The notes under the pieces were generated by a model that searched no databases, was not told where the DNA came from, and saw only the letters and a program-made list of their open reading frames with translations. DNA of 64,000 bases, taken from Chloroflexota bacterium (lineage in GTDB: Bacteria; Chloroflexota; UBA11872; VXOZ01). The position numbers and the translations under genes are program-made. Positions 23,344 to 55,196 of this stretch are shown here, piece after piece. Where the stretch lies: contig CAXXVD010000004.1 in NCBI GenBank assembly GCA_963662335.2, positions 128,001 to 192,000 of the forward strand, written 5' to 3'. How positions within the stretch are numbered: position 1 is the first letter of the stretch; every line of letters starts with the position of its first letter.

Positions 23344-25113
23344 ATGCGAACCGAGCAAGAACTGTATCCAAAGACCAGCCGTATGGGACTGATTGCCAGT
23401 CAAGTACGCAAAGGCCTCGGCGTTTCGTTCTTGCTCCTGGCCTTGGCATCCCTCGTCACACTTGCCGGCGCCTGCGGCTACTACCCTACCGCGATCTCCA
23501 TGCCCACGGCGACTCCGGCTCCCGAACCTGCGGCAGTTCCCGATCCCCAGGATGAAGCCGACGCCCTCACCCGCGCCTACGTGGAGAAGGCGATTGAACG
23601 CTATGTGCGCGAGGGGCTTGAGGCGACGGTCGCATTCTACAACAGCGAAGAGAGCGTAGAGGGCGAGCGGTACTTGACGTTGCTCCGCCAGGAAGACGGC
23701 ACTTCCCTGGCCATGCCATACTTCCAATACGCATTGGGAACCAGGCTCAAAGCCTTTGACATATACCTGGAGGCGGCTACGGCTGAGGGAATCTGGCTTG
23801 ATCACCGGGGAATGCTCTCGTCCCGATCCGCCGCTGGCGAGAACATCCTCAGGGTAGAGCCGCTGAGGAGTTTCGTCATTCTGCGCGACGGCCTGGTTTT
23901 CGTATCCAGACACTCCGTATTGCACGAGAACGTGGCGGAAGCCACCCAGGACTACGTGAGCCGCGCGATCGCTCTCTACCAGAGCGACGGGCTTGACGCG
24001 ACGGTTGCCTTCTACAACAGCCAGCAGAGCCTGGAGGGGCACTTCTACCTGTTCCTCATCGGCGCGGACGACAACTATCTGGCGCATCCGATATTCCCGC
24101 ACCTGATTGGCACTGACGTAAAGGACGTTGTGGGTTCGGACGGCCAGGAATTGGGGAAGGAGATAGCGCAAGCGACGGAGGACGGGATTTGGGTTGAATA
24201 CCTGTGGCCCAATCCGGTGACCCGGGTAGAGGAGCCGAAGACCACCTGGGCGGTCCGGCACGATGGGCTGATATTCGCTTCGGGCTACTACACATCCGTC
24301 GAGGAGGCGGTTTCGCCAGCCTGGGAGGGCGCGGACCCGCGCGAATACACGGTGGATTACGTGAACCGCGCGATAGAGCGGTACGAGCGCGACGGCCTTG
24401 AGGCGATGAAGACGTACTACAACAGCGTGGCGAGTTTCGAGGGCGAGTGGTATCTGTTCGCGGTGGACGAAAATGACCTGTACATCGTTCATTCACTCCT
24501 TCCCCGCCTGCTAGGGACGGACATCAAGGACTTGGTTGGATCGGACGGATTCGAACTGGGCAAGGAGTTGGCCAAGGCGACGGAGGAAGGGATCTGGGTG
24601 GAATACCTGTGGCCGCATCCGATTACGCTGCAGGAAGTGCCCAAGGTCGGGTACGCGGTCAGGCGAGACGGGATGATCTTCGCATCGGGCTACTACCCGG
24701 CGCCGGAAGACCCCGCCGCCGACGTGAAAGCCTTTGCGCGGCAGGCAATGGACTACTATGACTCAAATGGGCTGGAGGCGACGGTCGACCACTTCAACAG
24801 CGAGGCGAGCGAAGAGAGTTCCTACAATCTGCTCTTGGTCAGCGGCGAAGGCGAAGTCCTGGCGTTCAAGTTAAGACCGGCGTTGATTGGTCTGAATGTC
24901 GCGTTTCTGCGGGGACCCTTGAAGGGCGAGCCCGTTGGCGAATTGATCATGGAGGCGACGGCGGAAGGCCATTGGATTAGCTTCTTGTGGCAAAGCACAA
25001 TGGCGTCTGACGGTGTGCCCGCCCACGTATGGTCGGTCCGCCACGACGGTCTCGTCTTCTCGGTGTTCTACTTCGGCAATCTGGCAGCGGCGGAGGTAGA
25101 CGACGACGCCTGA
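23344..25113 (+). CDS. Lipoprotein with four tandem Cache-like domains
   Basis: Lipobox LAGAC; four repeats of 'YV.RAI..Y..DGL.AT..FYN...G.W..Y.W.....K....VR.DG.IF.SGY'. Confidence 0.8.
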   Translation: MRTEQELYPKTSRMGLIASQVRKGLGVSFLLLALASLVTLAGACGYYPTAISMPTATPAPEPAAVPDPQDEADALTRAYVEKAIERYVREGLEATVAFYNSEESVEGERYLTLLRQEDGTSLAMPYFQYALGTRLKAFDIYLEAATAEGIWLDHRGMLSSRSAAGENILRVEPLRSFVILRDGLVFVSRHSVLHENVAEATQDYVSRAIALYQSDGLDATVAFYNSQQSLEGHFYLFLIGADDNYLAHPIFPHLIGTDVKDVVGSDGQELGKEIAQATEDGIWVEYLWPNPVTRVEEPKTTWAVRHDGLIFASGYYTSVEEAVSPAWEGADPREYTVDYVNRAIERYERDGLEAMKTYYNSVASFEGEWYLFAVDENDLYIVHSLLPRLLGTDIKDLVGSDGFELGKELAKATEEGIWVEYLWPHPITLQEVPKVGYAVRRDGMIFASGYYPAPEDPAADVKAFARQAMDYYDSNGLEATVDHFNSEASEESSYNLLLVSGEGEVLAFKLRPALIGLNVAFLRGPLKGEPVGELIMEATAEGHWISFLWQSTMASDGVPAHVWSVRHDGLVFSVFYFGNLAAAEVDDDA

Positions 25114-25451
25114 CCTCCGCCTCCCGGGTCGTTATCCCATCACAAAATGAGGTGGGCGCCAGCGATTGCCGGCCGTTCTCCGCGGTGGACTTGCGTTCTC
25201 CGCATCCCGCTCTATCCTGAGGTAAGAACTGAAGAGTCCCACTCGGGCATGTGTGGAATATTCCCCATATGCCCGACCTTGGGCCTCAGCGGTTATGCGC
25301 CAGGCCCATCGCATTGGCCTCCTTACCGTTGGGCTTGCCACCGAAGAGTTGGCAATCGAGTCGCCGCCGTCCAGGTCTTCTTGAGAATCCACCGGCCCGA
25401 TGGGCCTGGCTGGCCTGTCTATGGCCACCAAGATGCGCGGGTCTATACGCC

Positions 25452-26564
25452 ATGCTGAATCTGCCTCATGCCGATGTCGTTGGGAGCCTCATTAGACCAC
25501 CGGAACTCCTCGCCGCGCGCGCGGAATTCGCGGGCGGGCGCATCTCGCCCGCGGCATTCAAGCGCGCCGAGGATGCCGCCGTCGATGGCGCCATTGCCGC
25601 CCAGGAGGAGGCCGGCCTTGAGATCCTCACCGACGGCGAAATACGCCGGCTCTCATTTCAGAGCCAGCTGCCCGAGGCTGTCGCGGGCTTTGGCGAGTTC
25701 GATCTCGACGCGTTTCTCTGGGGCGATTGGCGGGGGGACGAGCGGGTAGGCGACTCGCGCACGGATCGTCCCGCGACCCTAGGTGTCGTCGGTCGCCTCC
25801 AGCGGAAGCGCCACCTGTCGGCGGAGGAGTTCACCTACCTGCGCGGCCGCACCACGCGCCTAGCAAAGGTGACGTTGCCGAGCCCCAGCTTGTTCGCCAA
25901 CTTCTGGTCGCCGGTGAAGTCCGCCGCGGCCTACCCCACACTGGATGCGTTCCTGGCCGACGTCGCGCGGATACTCCGCGAGGAGATCGAAGAGCTGATC
26001 AGGCTGGGGGCGACCTACATCCAACTCGACGCGCCGCACTACCCGCTCGTGCTGGATCCGCAGTGGGCGGCGTTCTACGAGGCGCAGGGGTGGTCCGCGG
26101 CGGACTGGATCGCCCAGGGCGTCGAACTGGACAACGCCGTGATGGACGGTTTCTCGGATGTGGTGTTCGCGTTCCACCTCTGACGCGGCAACCAGGGCGG
26201 CCGGTGGCTGGTCGAAGGCGGTTACGACCGGCTTGTTGAGCCGGTGCTCCGGCGCATACACGCGCAGCGGCTGATGCTGGAATACGACGACCCGCGCTCA
26301 GGCTCGTTCGCGCCGCTGCGCGGCGTGCCCGACGACAAGCTCGTGGCGCTGGGACTGGTCACGACCAAGTCGCCGCGCGCGGAGACCCCAGCCGAACTTG
26401 CGTCTCGCATCGCCGAGGCCGCCCGCCACTTCCCGCTCGAGCAACTCGCCATCAGTCCGCAGTGCGGGTTCGGCTCATCCATCGTCGGCAATCCTCTCTC
26501 GATCGAGCAGCAGAACGCAAAACTGCGCCTCGTCGCCGAGACCGCCCGCAACGTTTGGGGGTAA
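25452..26564 (+). CDS. Cobalamin-independent methionine synthase II (MetE C-terminal-like) family protein, probable selenoprotein (in-frame TGA at 26181-26183)
   Basis: ADVVGSLIRP, TDGEIRR, YIQLDAP, FHL-[TGA]-RGN at the H-x-C-RGN Zn site, then in frame LEYDDPRSG and SPQCGF. Confidence 0.85.
26184..26212 (+). promoter_or_regulatory. Candidate bacterial SECIS element
   Basis: CGGCC-GGT-GGCTG hairpin (alternative ACCAG/CTGGT pairing), G-starting loop 19 nt after the UGA. Confidence 0.55.
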
Positions 26565-26841
26565 ACGTCCTCGCCATGTTTGCCAGCGACCCCCAGGGGT
26601 CCCTTCCTCGGTCCGTATAGCGGCCTTGCTAACGACCGTCCACACCCGTGACCCATAGTTTCTTGAACTGCCAACCAGAGCGGAGCAATGAAATACACTC
26701 GTACGGTATACCCCGCCTTCTATTCTCCCTTTTCTGGTATTGCATTGTTTCATGCATCGCCGGTCCAATTTCCCAGTGGCCCTCCACCAAGAGCAGCGCC
26801 GGCACTTAGTAGCCAGCGCCCTGTTATACTAGCCGTCGCAC

Positions 26842-27069: not shown

Positions 27070-28035
27070 TCAATCTACCACCTGGTACTTGGCAGGCAAG
27101 TTACTGGGACTGTAGGGGTTGCCGGAATTCTCCATGCGTCTGGGCACGCTCGAATGAATCTTCGCCGATTCGGGAATGCGCCGCTGTACCGGACGCCAGA
27201 CGCGCCACATGCCTCGTCGGGACTCCTGGATTGCGCCTAGTGGATCCGGATTAAGGCTGTCCTCCCAACCATTTCTCAAGCGCAGCCCTTTGTCCCGCGC
27301 GTTCTCCAACATCCACTTTAGTGAAATGTCCGATATTCTAGGATCAGGATGCGACCCGCCCACGTCGGAATGGAAGCCCGGGAACCAGACTTGCTCTATG
27401 ATCTGGCGCTCACTCCTGCGACTCTCGTTCCAAAGGCTCACAGGGAAGTGTCTGCGTCGTTCGTCGATTGAGACCGCTTGGTAGCCATAGGTCACGTCCT
27501 CGTTCAGGACGGTATCGAAGAACTTCCTCCCCCAAAACCAGCCCATAGAACCGACGGTGTCCCATACACCAATGAAGTAAGGCTTGCATTCGTGGCAGTA
27601 CGTTTCCTTGAACCCGGCGGCAATATCGTGATTGTCACGTCTGTTGTAAATCTTCGTAGCGTATGGAATGAGATTGTTGCTGCCCTTTTGCAGCAGGCCG
27701 CACTTGTGCAACATGCCCGCGAGCGCGCGAACCGTAAAGGCTCCTCTACTGAATCCGAAGAGGAACACCCTATCCCCCGCTTCATACCGGTCCATTAGGT
27801 ATCTGTAGGCATCCTCCACGTTCTGCTGCAGACCCGCGCCAAAGGCTTTGCCCAACAGGATACCCACTCGGCGGCCGGCTTCCCGCCCCAAGAAACTGAA
27901 GGTTCCGACACCAGGGTCGTAGAAGGCGATCTGATCCGAATCGCGTACGACGCGCTGGTACAGCTTGACCACGTTGGTACTGTTGCGACTATGTTCAGCC
28001 CCGGTCCCGTCACAGCAGATGACGATGTTCTTCAT
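27070..28035 (-). CDS. DUF2235 (Tle1-like) alpha/beta hydrolase
   Basis: CCDGT, YDPGVGT, FGFSRGA, GVWDTV, VWFPGFHSDVGG. Confidence 0.92.
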   Translation of the reverse strand: MKNIVICCDGTGAEHSRNSTNVVKLYQRVVRDSDQIAFYDPGVGTFSFLGREAGRRVGILLGKAFGAGLQQNVEDAYRYLMDRYEAGDRVFLFGFSRGAFTVRALAGMLHKCGLLQKGSNNLIPYATKIYNRRDNHDIAAGFKETYCHECKPYFIGVWDTVGSMGWFWGRKFFDTVLNEDVTYGYQAVSIDERRRHFPVSLWNESRRSERQIIEQVWFPGFHSDVGGSHPDPRISDISLKWMLENARDKGLRLRNGWEDSLNPDPLGAIQESRRGMWRVWRPVQRRIPESAKIHSSVPRRMENSGNPYSPSNLPAKYQVVD

Positions 28036-28110: not shown

Positions 28111-30459
28111 CTACCTGTAGGCATCGCCCAGCCACGGATCCGACCTGAGGTCCCTGTCGAACTCGCGAAGTGGGTGGCGGTCGGGGTCGAGTTTCTCTCC
28201 GGTATCCCATGGCTCGAAGGCGTTCTTGATGTTCCCCAGTCCCGTTCGGCCAAGCTCCGGGAAGTGACGGAGTATAACGGTCTTCAGGTCGGCGGCATCG
28301 ATCCAGGCAAGCCCCTCCTTCGTGTAGGTCTGTTCATTGTAGTCGTCGGTGTAGAAACGGTCCGCCTGGAGTCTGCGAGTCGCGTTCAGGATGAATATCT
28401 GGAACAGCGTTTCGCCGAACCCGAATCCGGTGGGGCGATGCCCCTCAGCGAGTGTACCAATCAGCAAGTCCAGCTTCTCCACGTCACTCGGCTGGTCCCC
28501 ATACACGTCCTTGAGCTTCCGTACCTGTTCGACGTCGTCGGTAAGGTCGTCGAACGTGCGAATTGGGTTGAGGCCCAATTGACGCCTGAACTCGTTGTAC
28601 CGTGGCACGCCCCTTTCGCGCGCCCTGAGGATGTCTACCGCACCCATATCGAAGAGCGGGTTGCCCGGTACACTAAGTTCTCGCATGAAGCTGGGGTAGT
28701 TGTTCAACACCAGTTGGCCCGGGTGCTGGACGCCAAATGAGAAGAACAGATCGGCCATTGACGTTCTGGCGGTCAGCCTGCCGGATCCCGCCTGGCGAGT
28801 CTGACCGAACGGCACGTCCTCGACCGCATTGTCGTTGCCGAGGCTTCTGATTCGGATTGCCTCGGGCAGAAGCGAGTGCAGGCGATAGACTTCGGCAAAC
28901 TCCTCGGTGAGGCCGTAGGGCTGCCCGTGCTTGTTGATCGGATTGCCTACAACACCGCCCATCTCCGGGTTCCGCACGTTGATGTCCGCAACCGTCTTCC
29001 TGTTCTCAGCGGCCCTGTAGGTGGTGAACAACCCATACCAGTTGGCATTCAGTCCTGAGTCGAGTCCGCGATTCGGGAGAATTGCCGGCGTCCATTCCAC
29101 GGTGTGTATCTTCGCCATCACGGCCGCGTTTATAAGGCGCGCCACGCTGAACAGGCGTGCGTCATCCCAATCATGATGGGCGCTCTTCAATCTGTCGCAG
29201 ATGGCATTATGCTCTCGCGTGAAGAGGGTGTGCAGCATGGTCAGGCCTATCCACCAGTTCCGGGTGAAGCCAGTCTGCTCGATACCCTTATCGTCGAGAG
29301 GTAGATTGCCCGCATCGTTGAGCCGAAGCTTGCCGTCGACCTTGGTACGGAGCTTTTCCAGAGTCTCCTGATTGCTGCCGTATATCTGAGAACCGTCCCA
29401 CCAGTGGGTGACTTCGTTGATGAACGTTATCGGGGTCCGTTCTCCATCGGGCATTCGGGTGGGATCGGATTGTGTCTTACCGATGAACATACTGGTCTGC
29501 CAGTGCTTCTTCCGAGCCGGGTCGTCTTCGGCCAGCGGAATCTCGTGCACCTCGTTGATGAGAGGCTCCCCATGGTGAACCCAATCATGGTTTTGGAAGT
29601 TGATCCATGACGCAGCCAGCAGATTGAGGAAAGGCACCTCCTTCATTTGCTCGCCCCTGGCCAGGAAGATGCGGCTTAACTCTCTCGGGTTCGGCGTCAT
29701 CAGGCTTTCACCCGTCTCTGGATGAATTACGTCGTTGTTCACATTGCGGGGGAAGCGAGTGCCTGCGGCGCCTTCTTTGGGATCGGCCAGGTTGTTCCAA
29801 CTTCCATCGGCCGTGCGAAAGTGTCTGACGCCCGGAGGTGGAGACTGTCCCTCCGGCTGAAAGCCTATCAAGGCTCCGGGTGGATAGGTGCTCTTGAGGT
29901 TGTTCTTGTTGAGTTGGTCGCGCATGTAGGCCAGGGTGAGAATCCCGATGAAGTACGGCCGGCGGTACCAGTTTGTCCACACCTCGTCGCGGTAGCCGGT
30001 CAGACCTCCTAGAACACTGGTCAATACGCTCATGACCAGCGACACAAACGCCCCTCCCGCGTTCCCCACCGCTAGCAGAACCCACTGGAAGAAGTTCCGC
30101 CTCGGCGCCGCCATCGGAGTAGAGGGTATAGAGCCATCCTCTACGACCGGCCTGGCGAGCAACGCGTCGCGGTCGAAGTAGGATATGTCCGGTACGTGCA
30201 CGTTCACTTCAGCCGCCGCATTCACGCGGGCCTGCGTCAACATGTCCTGCCACGTGCGCCTGTTGGGATCGAGCTTCAACGCTTGCCGGTAACTGTCGGC
30301 AGCCTCGTCATACTGCTGCAGACCGTAGTGCGCGGCCCCGGCGAGGGCGTGAGTTTCACCATCGGCGTCCGCGTCAATCTGCGCGCTCAGCAGTTCGAGA
30401 GCGTCCCGGAACCTGCGTTTCTCGATCAGCCGCGCCGCATCTTCGTTCGAGTTGCTCAT
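28111..30459 (-). CDS. Peroxidase-cyclooxygenase family heme protein (fatty-acid alpha-dioxygenase-like) with N-terminal TPR
   Basis: RTADGSWN, SWINFQNHDW, THWWDGSQIYG, AKIHTVEWTP, EEFAEVYRLHSLLP, RERGVPRYN, RRLQADRF. Confidence 0.9.
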   Translation of the reverse strand: MSNSNEDAARLIEKRRFRDALELLSAQIDADADGETHALAGAAHYGLQQYDEAADSYRQALKLDPNRRTWQDMLTQARVNAAAEVNVHVPDISYFDRDALLARPVVEDGSIPSTPMAAPRRNFFQWVLLAVGNAGGAFVSLVMSVLTSVLGGLTGYRDEVWTNWYRRPYFIGILTLAYMRDQLNKNNLKSTYPPGALIGFQPEGQSPPPGVRHFRTADGSWNNLADPKEGAAGTRFPRNVNNDVIHPETGESLMTPNPRELSRIFLARGEQMKEVPFLNLLAASWINFQNHDWVHHGEPLINEVHEIPLAEDDPARKKHWQTSMFIGKTQSDPTRMPDGERTPITFINEVTHWWDGSQIYGSNQETLEKLRTKVDGKLRLNDAGNLPLDDKGIEQTGFTRNWWIGLTMLHTLFTREHNAICDRLKSAHHDWDDARLFSVARLINAAVMAKIHTVEWTPAILPNRGLDSGLNANWYGLFTTYRAAENRKTVADINVRNPEMGGVVGNPINKHGQPYGLTEEFAEVYRLHSLLPEAIRIRSLGNDNAVEDVPFGQTRQAGSGRLTARTSMADLFFSFGVQHPGQLVLNNYPSFMRELSVPGNPLFDMGAVDILRARERGVPRYNEFRRQLGLNPIRTFDDLTDDVEQVRKLKDVYGDQPSDVEKLDLLIGTLAEGHRPTGFGFGETLFQIFILNATRRLQADRFYTDDYNEQTYTKEGLAWIDAADLKTVILRHFPELGRTGLGNIKNAFEPWDTGEKLDPDRHPLREFDRDLRSDPWLGDAYR

Positions 30460-31240
30460 TTTCTCCCTCCAATGCGGTGAACGTTTGCGCACATGCATAC
30501 AGATTCAGCTGCTCAGTCGGGTCTTACGTGATACCTGAGGCCACCCTCTGGATACGAGTGTGGCAGCGGGTCTTGCGATAAGACTGGACTTTGCGGGCGT
30601 ATTCGACCGTACTGAATCAGCTTTAGGATAGCCACCTTGCAGACGAGGAGAATGAGTCCCTTGCCGAGGCAGTCCTCGCGCCGCCGAGAAAGAGGCTGGG
30701 ATACATGGCCTCTGCATCGCTTCCAGGTTCCACAGAAGGCCCACCGCTACGGCGATACGGAACCCATTGAGCGAAACGTTCATAAAGCCAGACCTTCGTA
30801 CTTTCTTTACCGTTGTACCATACTGTAATTCGTGTGAGGCTGCAAGTAGCCGATGCAGCGCCATCAGCCCGACGGGTCCGCTAACGTGCGCTCACTTGAT
30901 GTCCACCGCCGGGGCGCTGGGACCGGCCTCCACGGAGAGCCGAGTGATAGAGGGTGCTATGAACGCCGCCCATGAGCGGTGGTAACCCTTGCCGTACAAA
31001 GTCCATCGGGACAGATAAGTGTATCGCGGCCGTGGTAGACACTGGCTTCACCGGGTCCCCGACCGTGACTCCGGCGCTGGTCATAGAGTTGGAATAGCCC
31101 CTCGCTGGCAATAGCCGTGTGACGTCGAATCTCCCACCGAAGAGTTCGCAATTCGGTACGCCTTGGCCCGCCAATTCAACCGCTCTCAGCTACAATACTA
31201 TCTGGGCCAGCCGCGCAGACGCGCATTTGGAGTGCACACT

Positions 31241-51191: not shown

Positions 51192-51485
51192 GATTTGACT
51201 CAGGTATGAAGTGCTGCCGCGTTGGTGTTGACCGCAGCCCGCAAGCGGGCCCGGCAAACCGCACGGCGCACATTGTGAACGTGCACCGGTGAACAATGCG
51301 CAAGTCGTGGAAATGCAGAACTCCAATTTTGCCGATTCGACGCGCGGCTAAGTCCTCGACCATTAGTACCGCTCGGCTGAACGCGTTACCGCGCTTACAC
51401 CTGCGGCCTATCAACCAGATCATCTCTCTGGGGTCTTACCTCTCGCCGCAAAGCGGTCGAGAGTGGGGAACCTAATCTTGAGGCT

Positions 51486-51518
<33 letters not shown>

Positions 51519-51576
51519 ATTCCGCACGTAGCTACCCAGCTATGCCTCTGGCGAGACAACTGGTACACCAGCGGTG

Positions 51577-51608
<32 letters not shown>

Positions 51609-51636
51609 CTCCTCGCAAGTTCCCTGCGCCTGCGGA

Positions 51637-51683
<47 letters not shown>

Positions 51684-51686
51684 GCG

Positions 51687-51721
<35 letters not shown>

Positions 51722-51797
51722 GCTCCAGCCCCAGGATGCGCTGAGCCGACATCGAGGTGCCAAGCCTCCCCGTCGCTATGAACGCTTGGGGGAGATA

Positions 51798-51828
<31 letters not shown>

Positions 51829-51990
51829 ATAATCCACGGCCCTTCCACTCGGAACCGTAGGGTCACTAAGCCCGACTTTCGTCCCTGCTCGACGTGTATG
51901 TCTCGCAGTCAAGCTCCCTTGTGCCTTTACACGCTAAGGCTGATTTCCATCCAGCCTGAGGGAACCTTTGGGCGCCTCCGTTATCTTTTG

Positions 51991-52026
<36 letters not shown>

Positions 52027-52284
52027 CTGTCCCCCTCCCGGATCACGGCAAGGGGTTAGAATAAGGATCGTAGAAGGGTGGTATTTCACCATTGCCTCCC
52101 CAATCCCCAAGAGGAAAGGTTCACAGGCTCCCACCTATCCTACGCATCGACGGCCCCGATCCAATGCCAAGGTGCAGTAAAGCTCCACGGGGTCTTTTTG
52201 TCCTTCCGCAGGTAACCAGCATCTTCACTGGTACTTCAATTTCGCCGGGTCCCCTGCTGAGACAGTGCCCAACTCGTTACGCCA

Positions 52285-52323
<39 letters not shown>

Positions 52324-52999
52324 CGGTACATCGCGGCGTCTCCGCCGCAACTTATCCCACTCTGTTTCCAGAGGGGCCGGACTTTCTCTTCACTCGTCCT
52401 CTGTTCATCTGGCCGGCGATCGCGCGGATCTCGGCTATGCCTTCGGTCGTCACGTGCGTCCCACGCTCCATGAGCAGCAGGATGCGCCGGAATTTGATGA
52501 AGTCCACACGCTTCTTGGAGCGCAGTTCGTGCTTCTCAAAGAACGGAATAATCCGTTCCCGGAGGTGTTGCACGCTGCGCACCCGATAGCACATGCGGTC
52601 ACCGTGGTTTCTACGCACTACTCCACACCCAAAGAAAGCCTTGAGTTGGTAGAGCAGTTGCGCGTCGCGTTCATGCTGCACCACGGTAAATTCAGGCAGC
52701 ACCTGAAAACCGGAGGTCATTTCGTCGTGGCGATTGATGCCCACAAAGAAGCACCCTTCTCCATCGACGAAACCGCAGATCCATTGCGCCGTCAACCGTG
52801 AAGACGAGGCCGGACGTAAAGTCTCTGAGGGTTCTCTCGTTTCGGTCATGCGAGAGCCTTCCCTGCGGATTGTCCCCATGTCCGCCAGGCTTCTTACTGC
52901 TTGCGCGCCGCGCGGAAGCGCGGCCTGCAAACGAGTACCTGATGGCTGTGCGAGGAGTTTCCCGCATATGGTCCGGTTTTACTAAGGCTCGCGAAGTGA
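52324..52999 (-). mobile_element. Group I intron in 23S rRNA at the site equivalent to E. coli U1931
   Basis: 676-nt insert in CCUAAGGU^AGCGAAAU; P1 with U-G at 5' splice site; UCAGAGACU and AAGAGAAAGUCC core motifs; terminal G. Confidence 0.95.
52352..52849 (-). CDS. Single-motif LAGLIDADG homing endonuclease
   Basis: WICGFVDGEGCF, F.V.QH, FFGCG.V, IIPFFEK..L...K..DF..F. Confidence 0.95.
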   Translation of the reverse strand: MTETREPSETLRPASSSRLTAQWICGFVDGEGCFFVGINRHDEMTSGFQVLPEFTVVQHERDAQLLYQLKAFFGCGVVRRNHGDRMCYRVRSVQHLRERIIPFFEKHELRSKKRVDFIKFRRILLLMERGTHVTTEGIAEIRAIAGQMNRGRVKRKSGPSGNRVG

Positions 53000-53216
53000 A
53001 CCTTAGGACGGTTATAGTTACCGCCGCCGTTCACCGGGGCTTCCCGTCAGGGCGTGAACCCCTCTAGTTAACCTTCCGGCACCGGGCAGGCGTCAGCCCC
53101 CATACATCAGCTTTCGCTTTCGCGGAGACCTGTGTTTTTGTTAAACAGTCGGTTGGGCCTCTTCAGTGCCACCGCGGCTCGCTAGCCGGCGCAAGGCCGG
53201 AGCACGCGCCGCGGTA

Positions 53217-53249
<33 letters not shown>

Positions 53250-54546
53250 GAGTTCCTTAGCAGAGGGTCTCCCGCTCACCTTGGGACATTTACCCCCGCC
53301 CACCAGTGTCGGTTTGCGGTACGGGCGCCCATATTCTGGCTAGAGGCTTTTCTTGCAGGCTGGGCTCAAAGGAATCGCCCTTGACGATTGTCGCGGACTC
53401 TCCATCGCTTCTCGGCGTTTGGGGTAGAGCGGCGGATTTACCTGCCGCTCCCGCCTACCAGCTTGGACGTGTATAGCCAAGAACACGCTCCTCCTACCCT
53501 GCCCGGTCCCCCCTTCGCTCATAACGAACACGGGCGGTTCCGGAATATCAACCGGATGTCCATCGCCTACGCCATATTGGCCTCGGCTTAGGCCCGACTA
53601 ACCCTCAGTGGACGAACCTTCCTGAGGAAACCTTGGGCTTACGGTGAGCCGGATTCTCACCGGCTAACGCTACTCATGCCGACATTCGCACTTCCCTGCG
53701 CTCCACCCGTCCTTTCGGTCGGGCTTCGCCGCCCAGGGAACGCTCCCCTACCCGGCGGCTGCTCCCGTAGGATTGCCGCCGCCCTAGCTTCGGTACCAGA
53801 CTTAAGCCCCGTTGAATTTTCGGCGCCAGACGGCTTGACCAGTGAGCTGTTACGCACTCTTTAAAGGATGGCTGCTTCCAAGCCAACCTCCTGGCTGTCC
53901 GGGCTATCCGACATCCTTTCCCACTTAGTCCGGATTTAGGGACCTTAGCTGAGGGTCTGGGTTGTTTCCCTTTTGACGATGAAGATTATCCCCCACCGTC
54001 CCACTCCCAGGCAACGTGTACACGGCATTCGGAGTTTGGTTGGGTTTGGTAACCGTTTTGGCCCCTAGCCCATCCAGTGCTCTACCTCCGCGACACTTAA
54101 ACCTGAGGCTGCACCGCAATGCATTTCGGGGAGAACCAGCTATATCTGAGTTCGATTGGCATTTCACCTCTAGCCACAGCTCATCCCCCAGTTTTGTAAC
54201 ACTGGTGGGTGCGGGCTTCCACGAGATATTACTCTCTCTTCACCCTGGCCATGGCTAGCTCACTCAGTTTCGGGTCTACTCCACGCGACTGGATCGCCCT
54301 GTTCGGACTCGCTTTCGCTACGGCTCCGGCCCTCCGACCTTAGCCTTGCCACGCATAGTAACTCGTCGGCTCATTCTCCAAAAGGCACGCCATCAGGCAT
54401 TCCGCCTCATAATGCGGGCTCAACGCCCCCGCGCGCCGCGCCTCCCGAAAGAAGCGCAGTTTGCGGGCACGCCGTCCCAGCAAGGCGGCATAGCCCTCTG
54501 ACTGCTTGTAGGCGTACGATTTCAGGTTCTGTTTCACTCCCCTCCC

Positions 54547-54577
<31 letters not shown>

Positions 54578-55196
54578 CGTTCGCTATCGGTCGCCAAAGG
54601 TGTTTAGCCTTGGGAAGTGGGCTCCCCAGCTTCCCACAGGGTTACACGTGTCCCGTGGTACTCAGGCACAGCAACGAGAGAGCCGTGGCTTTCGTGTACG
54701 GGGCTCTCACCCTCTCTGGCGGGCCGTTCCAGGCCCTTCTACTAACCACAGCTTTTCTCCAACTCTCCGGGCCCCTTGCAGAGGGCCCTGTTGCGGCCTC
54801 CAACCCTCACGCTGCAACGGCTGCAACCTATCGCACAGCGTGAGTTTAGGCTCATCCCCTTTCGCTCGCCACTACTCAGGGAATACTCTCTCTTCCTCGC
54901 CCTACTAAGATGATTCAGTTCGGGCGGTTCCCCCCGCAGGTCTATTAATTCAACCTGCGGTGACGAGGCATCACCCTCGCCGGGTTTCCCCATTCGGGCA
55001 CCTGCGGATCAAAATCTGCTGACGACTCCCCGCAGCTTTTCGCAGTCAACCGCGCCCTTCATCGGCCTTTGGCGCCAAGGCATCCGTCGCACGCCCTTAG
55101 TAACTTAGCCTGCTTCGAACCGGCAAAATTGAAGTTCTGCTTGCGCATATTCACCTGTTAACGTGCCGCCCCCACTCGCGCAAGGGCGCATCCCCT

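Follow-up and report, generated by a model that had tools for sequence, protein, structure and literature searches.

A MetE-like gene of a Chloroflexota bacterium that very probably encodes a selenoprotein with selenocysteine at a zinc-ligand position

The stretch of DNA analysed here (64,000 nt of contig CAXXVD010000004.1 from the Chloroflexota bacterium assembly GCA_963662335.2, hereafter the window) carries on its plus strand, at positions 25452–26564, a gene that is interrupted by a single in-frame TGA. Comparison with its relatives makes it very probable that this gene encodes a genuine selenoprotein, homologous to the catalytic domain of the cobalamin-independent methionine synthase MetE, in which selenocysteine (Sec) at residue 244 takes the position of a zinc ligand. 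The protein would thus very probably belong to an already known enzyme family, as a form of it that carries Sec at a zinc-ligand position. To our knowledge, Sec serves redox chemistry or lies beside redox-active metals in almost every catalogued selenoprotein; if our reading is true, a Sec residue ligating a catalytic zinc in a methyl-transfer barrel extends selenium enzyme chemistry and constitutes an unusual non-redox use of this amino acid.

The coding sequence extends from the ATG at 25452 to the TAA at 26562–26564 and yields 370 residues when TGA is translated as Sec (U). The only in-frame TGA of these 370 codons is codon 244 (26181–26183), in the context F-H-L-TGA-R-G-N, and the motifs LEYD and SPQCGF follow 3′ of it in the same frame. 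Under translation table 11, two open reading frames (ORFs) are obtained, 25251–26183 and, from a GTG restart, 26244–26564, and both lie in one frame. A preliminary description, made from the sequence alone, had interpreted these two ORFs as one frame split by a single TGA and had proposed a 370-residue read-through product with Sec244; the frame is borne out in both respects. All same-genus orthologs begin with MLNLPHAD or MLDLPHAD.

The TGA at codon 244 recurs widely among relatives. We searched 16 other genomes of the same genus and found an ortholog in 13 of them, at 88–90% identity, the other three (G009, G010 and G011) giving weak paralog-level matches only. Codon 244 is TGA in 10 of these orthologs and TGC or TGT in three, so that TGA is present in 11 of 14 genes of the genus when the window gene is included. 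A wider set, obtained from a scan of species-representative genomes, consisted of the best 80 of 197 relatives, at 61–90% identity; the aligned codon is TGA in 38 of these loci, TGC in 35 and TGT in 7. The 80-locus set overlaps the same-genus set, and the two counts are not independent. The comparisons below cover 81 genes, comprising 39 Sec forms and 42 Cys forms. Titles of the TGA forms name Chloroflexota, Dehalococcoidia, Poribacteria, Anaerolineales, Caldilineaceae, Desulfobacterales, Acidobacteria and Thermoanaerobaculia. The preliminary description had suggested looking for homologs with TGA in the same column, and had named two findings that would speak against Sec, namely TGC or TGT in all close homologs and a TGA arising from an assembly error. 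Homologs of this kind were found in both sets, the close homologs are not uniformly TGC or TGT, and an assembly error is ruled out by the recurrence of the TGA in many independent assemblies.

The sequence 3′ of the TGA is maintained as strictly as the sequence 5′ of it. In 36 Sec forms without indels, the median ratio of non-synonymous to synonymous substitution rates (dN/dS) was 0.13 for the 126 codons downstream of the TGA, compared with 0.12 for 60 codons upstream, and none of the 81 genes contains a further in-frame stop. The alternative of a pseudogene or truncated gene, in which the TGA terminates a 243-residue fragment and a separate 106-residue product possibly starts at GTG 26244, agrees with the two ORFs given by table 11, both of which a gene caller would report. 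It does not agree with the retention of the TGA in 38 of 80 loci over several phyla, in copies that are all free of other stops, nor with the equal downstream and upstream dN/dS; moreover, codons 245–264, which lie between the TGA and GTG 26244 and would belong to neither product, keep their residues and vary synonymously, and the truncated product would be without two of the four zinc ligands described below. Because the TGA recurs, selection continues downstream and no other stops occur, the readings as pseudogene, split gene or assembly error are for practical purposes excluded, and we regard termination at codon 244 as exceedingly improbable. The full-length protein containing residue 244 is therefore the product considered in the following.

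Profile and structure searches were run on the protein with Cys at residue 244. Residues 9–340 match PF01717 (Meth_synt_2, the MetE catalytic domain) with 62 bits at a gathering cut-off of 21, and the nearest solved structure is PDB 1YPX from Listeria (1ypx_A, expectation value (E) 3.5e-47, residues 6–370), whose HICRGN is aligned to HLURGN of the window protein. An AlphaFold2 model based on 46 sequences reached a predicted local distance difference test score (pLDDT) of 89 and a predicted template modelling score (pTM) of 0.90; the top Foldseek matches of this model were 1ypx and the MetE catalytic domains of Candida albicans, Thermotoga maritima and Neurospora crassa, with query template modelling scores (TMq) of 0.71–0.74, and the best structural match was 1ypx with a target score (TMt) of 0.82. 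The profile of full-length, two-domain MetE (TIGR01371, ~750 residues) scored only 39.2 bits against its cut-off of 929.95, over profile positions 421–601 only, and 48.7 bits in hmmscan, again below 929.95. Two NCBIfam models for short B12-independent methionine synthases also remained below their curated cut-offs (NF005085, 217.5 versus 313 bits; NF004875, 198.4 versus 576 bits), and none of the NCBIfam selenoprotein models matched the window protein. Judged by these profile and fold matches, the protein is a single-domain, stand-alone relative of the MetE catalytic domain and belongs to the ‘cobalamin-independent methionine synthase II’ family.

We aligned the active site with residues 417–753 of Escherichia coli MetE (annotated K-12 record). 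The zinc ligands of MetE are H641, C643, E665 and C726, and the enzyme binds homocysteine through S433, E484 and D599, as given in the active-site description of PMC7857596. H242, U244, E277 and C338 of the window protein align to the four ligands, and S12, E63 and D193 to the homocysteine-binding triad. Since the alignment places codon 244 on C643, the UGA (26181–26183) stands at the position of a zinc-ligand cysteine, a claim of the preliminary description that thus holds by homology. The position equivalent to His641, His242 (codon CAC, 26175–26177), is H without exception, in all 39 Sec and all 42 Cys forms. The equivalents of Glu665 and Cys726, namely Glu277 (GAA in LEYD, 26280–26282) and Cys338 (TGC in SPQCGF, 26463–26465), are present in 81 of 81 rows, as is Asp193 (26028–26030), the equivalent of Asp599. 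Ser12 (25485–25487) and Glu63 (25638–25640), equivalent to Ser433 and Glu484, occur in 80 of 81 rows each; the sole exception among the seven positions is one Sec-form row that is gapped at both. In the structural model, β-strands end at H242, at E277 and at the residue before C338, as they would in a barrel active site. By homology with MetE, zinc is predicted to be bound by H242, U244, E277 and C338.

The genome itself is equipped for Sec insertion. The preliminary description had proposed a search for selA, selB, selC and selD, and all four are present over their cut-offs: selD with 379.6 bits, selA with 562.4 bits and selB with 381.2 bits (all above curated cut-offs), and the tRNA-Sec gene selC with 67.8 bits, which ARAGORN calls tRNA-SeC with the anticodon tca. 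Two other genes of this genome contain one in-frame TGA each, selD (G000:C1:382996–383925, plus strand; SLAACAG-U-AGK) and an FdhA-like gene (G000:C5:266479–268341, plus strand; CNRT-U-HAPSVAG), at sites that we take to be canonical Sec sites. Among distant Sec-form genomes, selA was over the cut-off in four of five. Elsewhere TGA is an ordinary stop codon, terminating the window genes for histidyl-tRNA synthetase (HisRS), a Cache-repeat protein and a Tle1-like protein, and because of this a reassignment of the code is ruled out. Read-through of the UGA without Sec, whether through code reassignment or through a near-cognate tRNA for Cys, Trp or Arg, would be in line with the 42 of 80 relatives in which a Cys at this position is functional and with a hairpin that, as described below, has no energetic signal of its own. 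Against this stand the complete Sec machinery with two classical selenoprotein genes whose TGA codons lie at canonical sites, the pairing of the TGA with Cys, which is the signature of Sec, and the loop base, for which all 39 TGA forms have the U or G required by the SelB-binding model. We therefore consider read-through without Sec very unlikely and insertion of Sec at codon 244 the preferred reading.

A hairpin resembling a selenocysteine insertion sequence (SECIS) lies within the coding sequence at 26192–26218 of the plus strand, as delimited by the RNAalifold consensus of 36 distinct Sec-form sequences. Its upper stem of 5 bp is formed by CGGCC (26198–26202) and GGCTG (26206–26210) and closed by the apical loop GGU (26203–26205), and lower pairs join 26195–26196 with 26212–26213 and 26192–26193 with 26217–26218; in the consensus, columns 18–22 pair with 26–30 around a 3-nt loop, followed by two pairs on the far side of a G·G mismatch and, further down, another two. 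The distance from the A of the TGA to the first G of the loop is 19 nt, so that the hairpin CGGCC-GGT-GGCTG with a G-starting loop 19 nt past the UGA is present just as it had been proposed. The bacterial SECIS (bSECIS) model, in the form in which it is set out in a 2026 review of the prokaryotic selenoproteome (PMC13188914), comprises a loop of 3–9 nt, an upper stem of 4–16 bp, a G in the first two loop positions (G[G/U] at the loop start) 16–37 nt from the UGA and an MFE (minimum free energy) no higher than −7.5. A prediction of the bSECISearch type had been suggested, and with these published constraints applied by hand, the window hairpin fits (loop GGU of 3 nt, stem of 5 bp, spacing of 19 nt). 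The 45 nt past the UGA fold with an MFE of −14.7 kcal/mol, with the hairpin as apex, and the hairpin alone has −7.7 to −8.7 kcal/mol.

One feature of this hairpin discriminates Sec from Cys forms, namely the third, wobble position of the loop's Arg codon. Among the 39 Sec forms this codon is CGT in 29 and CGG in 10 and never CGC or CGA, while the 42 Cys forms have CGC in 23, CGT in 9, CGG in 7 and CGA in 3; GUU or GGU is consequently the loop sequence of all 39 Sec forms, compared with 16 of 42 Cys forms (naive Fisher p 1.5e-10, with kin that are not independent). As to the conservation of the hairpin, which the preliminary description had suggested examining, a consensus exists in 36 Sec forms and the G-U loop in all 39, and most Cys forms share the hairpin too. 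We also attempted a genus-specific SECIS consensus, which failed. In the FdhA-like gene, a 6-bp hairpin with the loop GGUCU, 18 nt past the UGA, is possible (−10.6 kcal/mol), and this loop appears in a near-optimal fold only (−17.2 versus an MFE of −18.1); the MFE hairpin of selD has the loop CCG.

Several observations weigh against the selenoprotein reading or against particular parts of it, and a number of them concern the hairpin. In addition to the CCG loop of selD, which lacks the G-first rule, the predicted stability of the window hairpin is not exceptional, with z = −0.14 in comparison with shuffled sequences (RNAfold, 70 nt; 84 of 200 shuffles fold at least as well), and two-sided changes were seen in only one of nine predicted pairs. 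An energy of ≤ −7.5 kcal/mol is reached by the named hairpin of 28 of the 39 Sec forms and also by that of 21 of the 42 Cys forms, with respective medians of −7.7 and −6.6 (Mann–Whitney p 0.04, kin not independent). The presence of the hairpin in most Cys forms is due to its stem being built from codons of conserved residues, G-S/G-R-W-L, within an 11-residue insert that has no counterpart in MetE. When the loop-base contrast was restricted to phylogenetically independent pairs, only five were available and it was not significant (median p 0.5). The hairpin is thus energetically unremarkable, and its support is comparative.

Other points of this kind concern distribution and context. In an even sample of the phylum (401 genomes), TGA was found in 8 of 41 orthologs, all of them in the window’s own genus; the Sec form is not rare among relatives sampled by similarity (38 of 80), yet it is a minority in the even sample. 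Genomes with a Cys form also possess selA, in four of five distant genomes and three of three of the same genus, and the choice between Sec and Cys is therefore not dictated by the machinery. No conserved neighbour was detected, the commonest neighbour family occurring in 13 of 80 loci, and an Rfam search of 25000–26700 for an upstream RNA or riboswitch gave none at the gathering score, the only match up to E = 1 being the P10 sRNA (small RNA) family (19.2 bits, E 0.12); hence its surroundings give no link between the gene and methionine metabolism. The genome furthermore contains two split MetE gene pairs (G000:C5:293637–295315, minus strand, and C1:668230–670007, plus strand), in each of which one gene matches the N-terminal half and the adjacent one the C-terminal half. 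No MetH over the cut-off was found in this genome, with three proteins resembling the homocysteine-binding domain only. From the two split pairs and the lack of a MetH over the cut-off, it follows that the enzyme may serve a side route rather than the main methionine synthesis.

A tree of the 81 proteins from a quick maximum-likelihood run, with column 244 masked as X, requires a minimum of 13 changes of the Sec/Cys label, at least five of which are forced by the starred branches. Eight Cys forms are nested in a Sec-rich clade of 33 rows, and six of them (L060, L081, L082, L064, L066 and L055) keep the loop codon CGT and hence the GUU loop that is typical of Sec forms. CGT in these nested Cys forms looks like a SECIS relic of a recent change from Sec to Cys. 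Because the conserved insert codons N-Q-G-S-R-W-L already fold into a SECIS-shaped hairpin, a single change of the Arg-codon wobble base from C to U or G together with TGC to TGA might be enough to switch between the two forms. A further-reaching proposal, which we put a little below an even chance, is that the protein represents a natural zinc-selenolate centre in a widespread Sec-dependent alkyl-transfer enzyme (at least seven titled lineages in the 80 loci) that toggles between Cys and Sec unusually easily in this way.

On this basis the following course of events can be envisaged. The hairpin starting 11 nt past the UGA, which lies in the codons of the family-specific insert N-Q-G-(S/G)-R-W-L, would recruit SelB carrying Sec-tRNA(Sec), and UGA244 would be decoded as Sec. 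Sec244 would replace the Cys of the H-x-C motif, and its selenolate, together with His242, Glu277 and Cys338, would hold Zn2+ at the C-terminal ends of the strands that form the barrel. This zinc would act as it does in MetE, binding a substrate thiol and activating it for attack on a methyl donor; the conservation of the Ser/Glu/Asp triad that binds homocysteine makes L-homocysteine the most likely substrate. As to the benefit of selenium, we can only conjecture that Sec makes the zinc site electron-richer and that the selenolate ligand plausibly raises the nucleophilicity of the zinc-bound thiolate, with faster alkylation as a result, or that Sec may protect the oxidation-sensitive metal site of an aerobic organism against becoming irreversibly oxidised.

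Sec could also be inserted without acting as a passive zinc ligand, serving instead as the catalytic nucleophile or methyl acceptor, as a selector for a different, softer metal or mainly as an oxidation-resistant switch. Non-redox selenoproteins in which Sec presumably accepts an alkyl group or binds a metalloid, methylated-DNA-protein-cysteine methyltransferase and arsenite methyltransferase, do appear among the families listed in the 2026 review (PMC13188914). In Bacillus subtilis under hypochlorite stress, MetE is S-bacillithiolated at an active-site Cys, and so is the MetE-related YxjG, for which the site is not given in the corresponding passage (PMC4360819). A haem peroxidase is, in addition, encoded 1.5 kb from the gene. 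On the other hand, Sec and Cys forms do not differ at His242, Glu277, Cys338 or the homocysteine triad, all of which are invariant, and the frequent interconversion of the two forms (at least five changes) speaks for a common mechanism, with residue 244 playing an identical part in both. A non-passive role of Sec244 is therefore unlikely, and a zinc-ligating Sec remains our preferred assignment.

The neighbours of the selenoprotein gene in the window are functionally unrelated to it. Directly upstream, at 23344–25113 (plus strand), a 589-residue, apparently secreted protein with repeated Cache-like modules (sCache_2/dCache_2 matches) is encoded, separated from the selenoprotein gene by a gap of 338 nt without an Rfam match. 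Downstream, both on the minus strand, follow genes for a 321-residue protein with a Tle1-like phospholipase catalytic domain (27070–28035; PF09994, 253.7 bits) and for a protein of 795 residues that combines TPR repeats at the N-terminus with a haem peroxidase domain of the animal type (28111–30498; PF03098, 365.5 bits), the latter lying 1.5 kb from the selenoprotein gene. Farther away, at 51344–55110 (minus strand), the window contains a 23S rRNA gene of 3767 nt, compared with 2925 positions in the model, inside which 52358–53014, on the same strand, matches the group I catalytic intron family (RF00028, 61.1 bits versus a gathering score of 50). Introns are uncommon in bacterial 23S rRNA genes.

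Among the 120 relatives listed, out of at least 7,997 with E ≤ 1e-30, those that are named bear the titles ‘cobalamin-independent methionine synthase II family protein’ or ‘5-methyltetrahydropteroyltriglutamate--homocysteine methyltransferase’, and none of these bears a selenoprotein label. The 2026 review (PMC13188914), whose table of families gives Pfam and NCBIfam ids, makes no mention of PF01717, methionine synthase, homocysteine or cobalamin-independent enzymes, and none of these terms turns up in the main text of a 2022 review, a 2016 comparative study, deep-Sep or BSepDB. In a 2020 review, methionine synthase is mentioned only as the B12 enzyme MetH, and no MetE-like entry stands in the passages of its Table 4 that were consulted. 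Literature searches, which did not extend to supplementary family lists, likewise found no published account of a Sec-containing MetE-like protein. Gene callers split the Sec forms or mark them as broken, and selenoproteome counts for these Chloroflexota and Poribacteria genomes would therefore be too low. The natural Sec/Cys pairs at 88–90% identity within one genus amount to a natural experiment on the benefit of the substitution and, if our reading is true, offer a natural system for studying the role of selenium at a non-redox metal site, be it faster thiolate alkylation or protection from oxidation. The insert hairpin would further be an example of a SECIS element arising from pre-existing coding sequence.

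Among known systems, 1YPX and the YxjG/YxjH-type family (PF01717, ~370 residues) come closest, sharing with the window protein its length, its fold and the H-x-C-R-G-N motif followed by an insert that ends with EGGY; 1YPX and all named relatives have Cys at position 244, in contrast to Sec here. In Lactobacillus, yxjH is controlled by a methionine T-box and co-transcribed with luxS (PMC6004538), whereas methionine-linked regulation or neighbours of this type were not found at the window gene. E. coli MetE has the same barrel fold, and the four zinc ligands and three homocysteine residues align, but the window protein lacks the N-terminal folate-tail-binding domain, is only 21% identical, has Sec in place of Cys643 and contains several family-specific inserts, one of which carries the hairpin. 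The core methionine synthases MesA–MesD are likewise single-domain relatives of MetE, described as having an HCEC-type zinc site and using methyl donors other than methyl-folate (Price et al. 2021, PMC7857596). The position of Cys643 is variable among these enzymes, being His in most MesC according to the section of that study dealing with the zinc site. The MesD structure 3rpd_A matches the window protein weakly (30.2 bits, E 2.4e-6); assignment to MesD calls for the presence of MesX and for high similarity to a MesD of known function, for which its authors use 560 bits to ACIAD3523 (PMC7857596). With regard to selenium, the arrangement resembles that of formate dehydrogenase (Mo/W) and [NiFeSe] hydrogenase, in which, in the account given by the 2026 review, Sec replaces a metal-binding Cys and Sec and Cys forms coexist (PMC13188914). 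Those two are redox enzymes with redox-active metals, whereas the metal predicted here is the redox-inert zinc and the predicted reaction an alkyl transfer.

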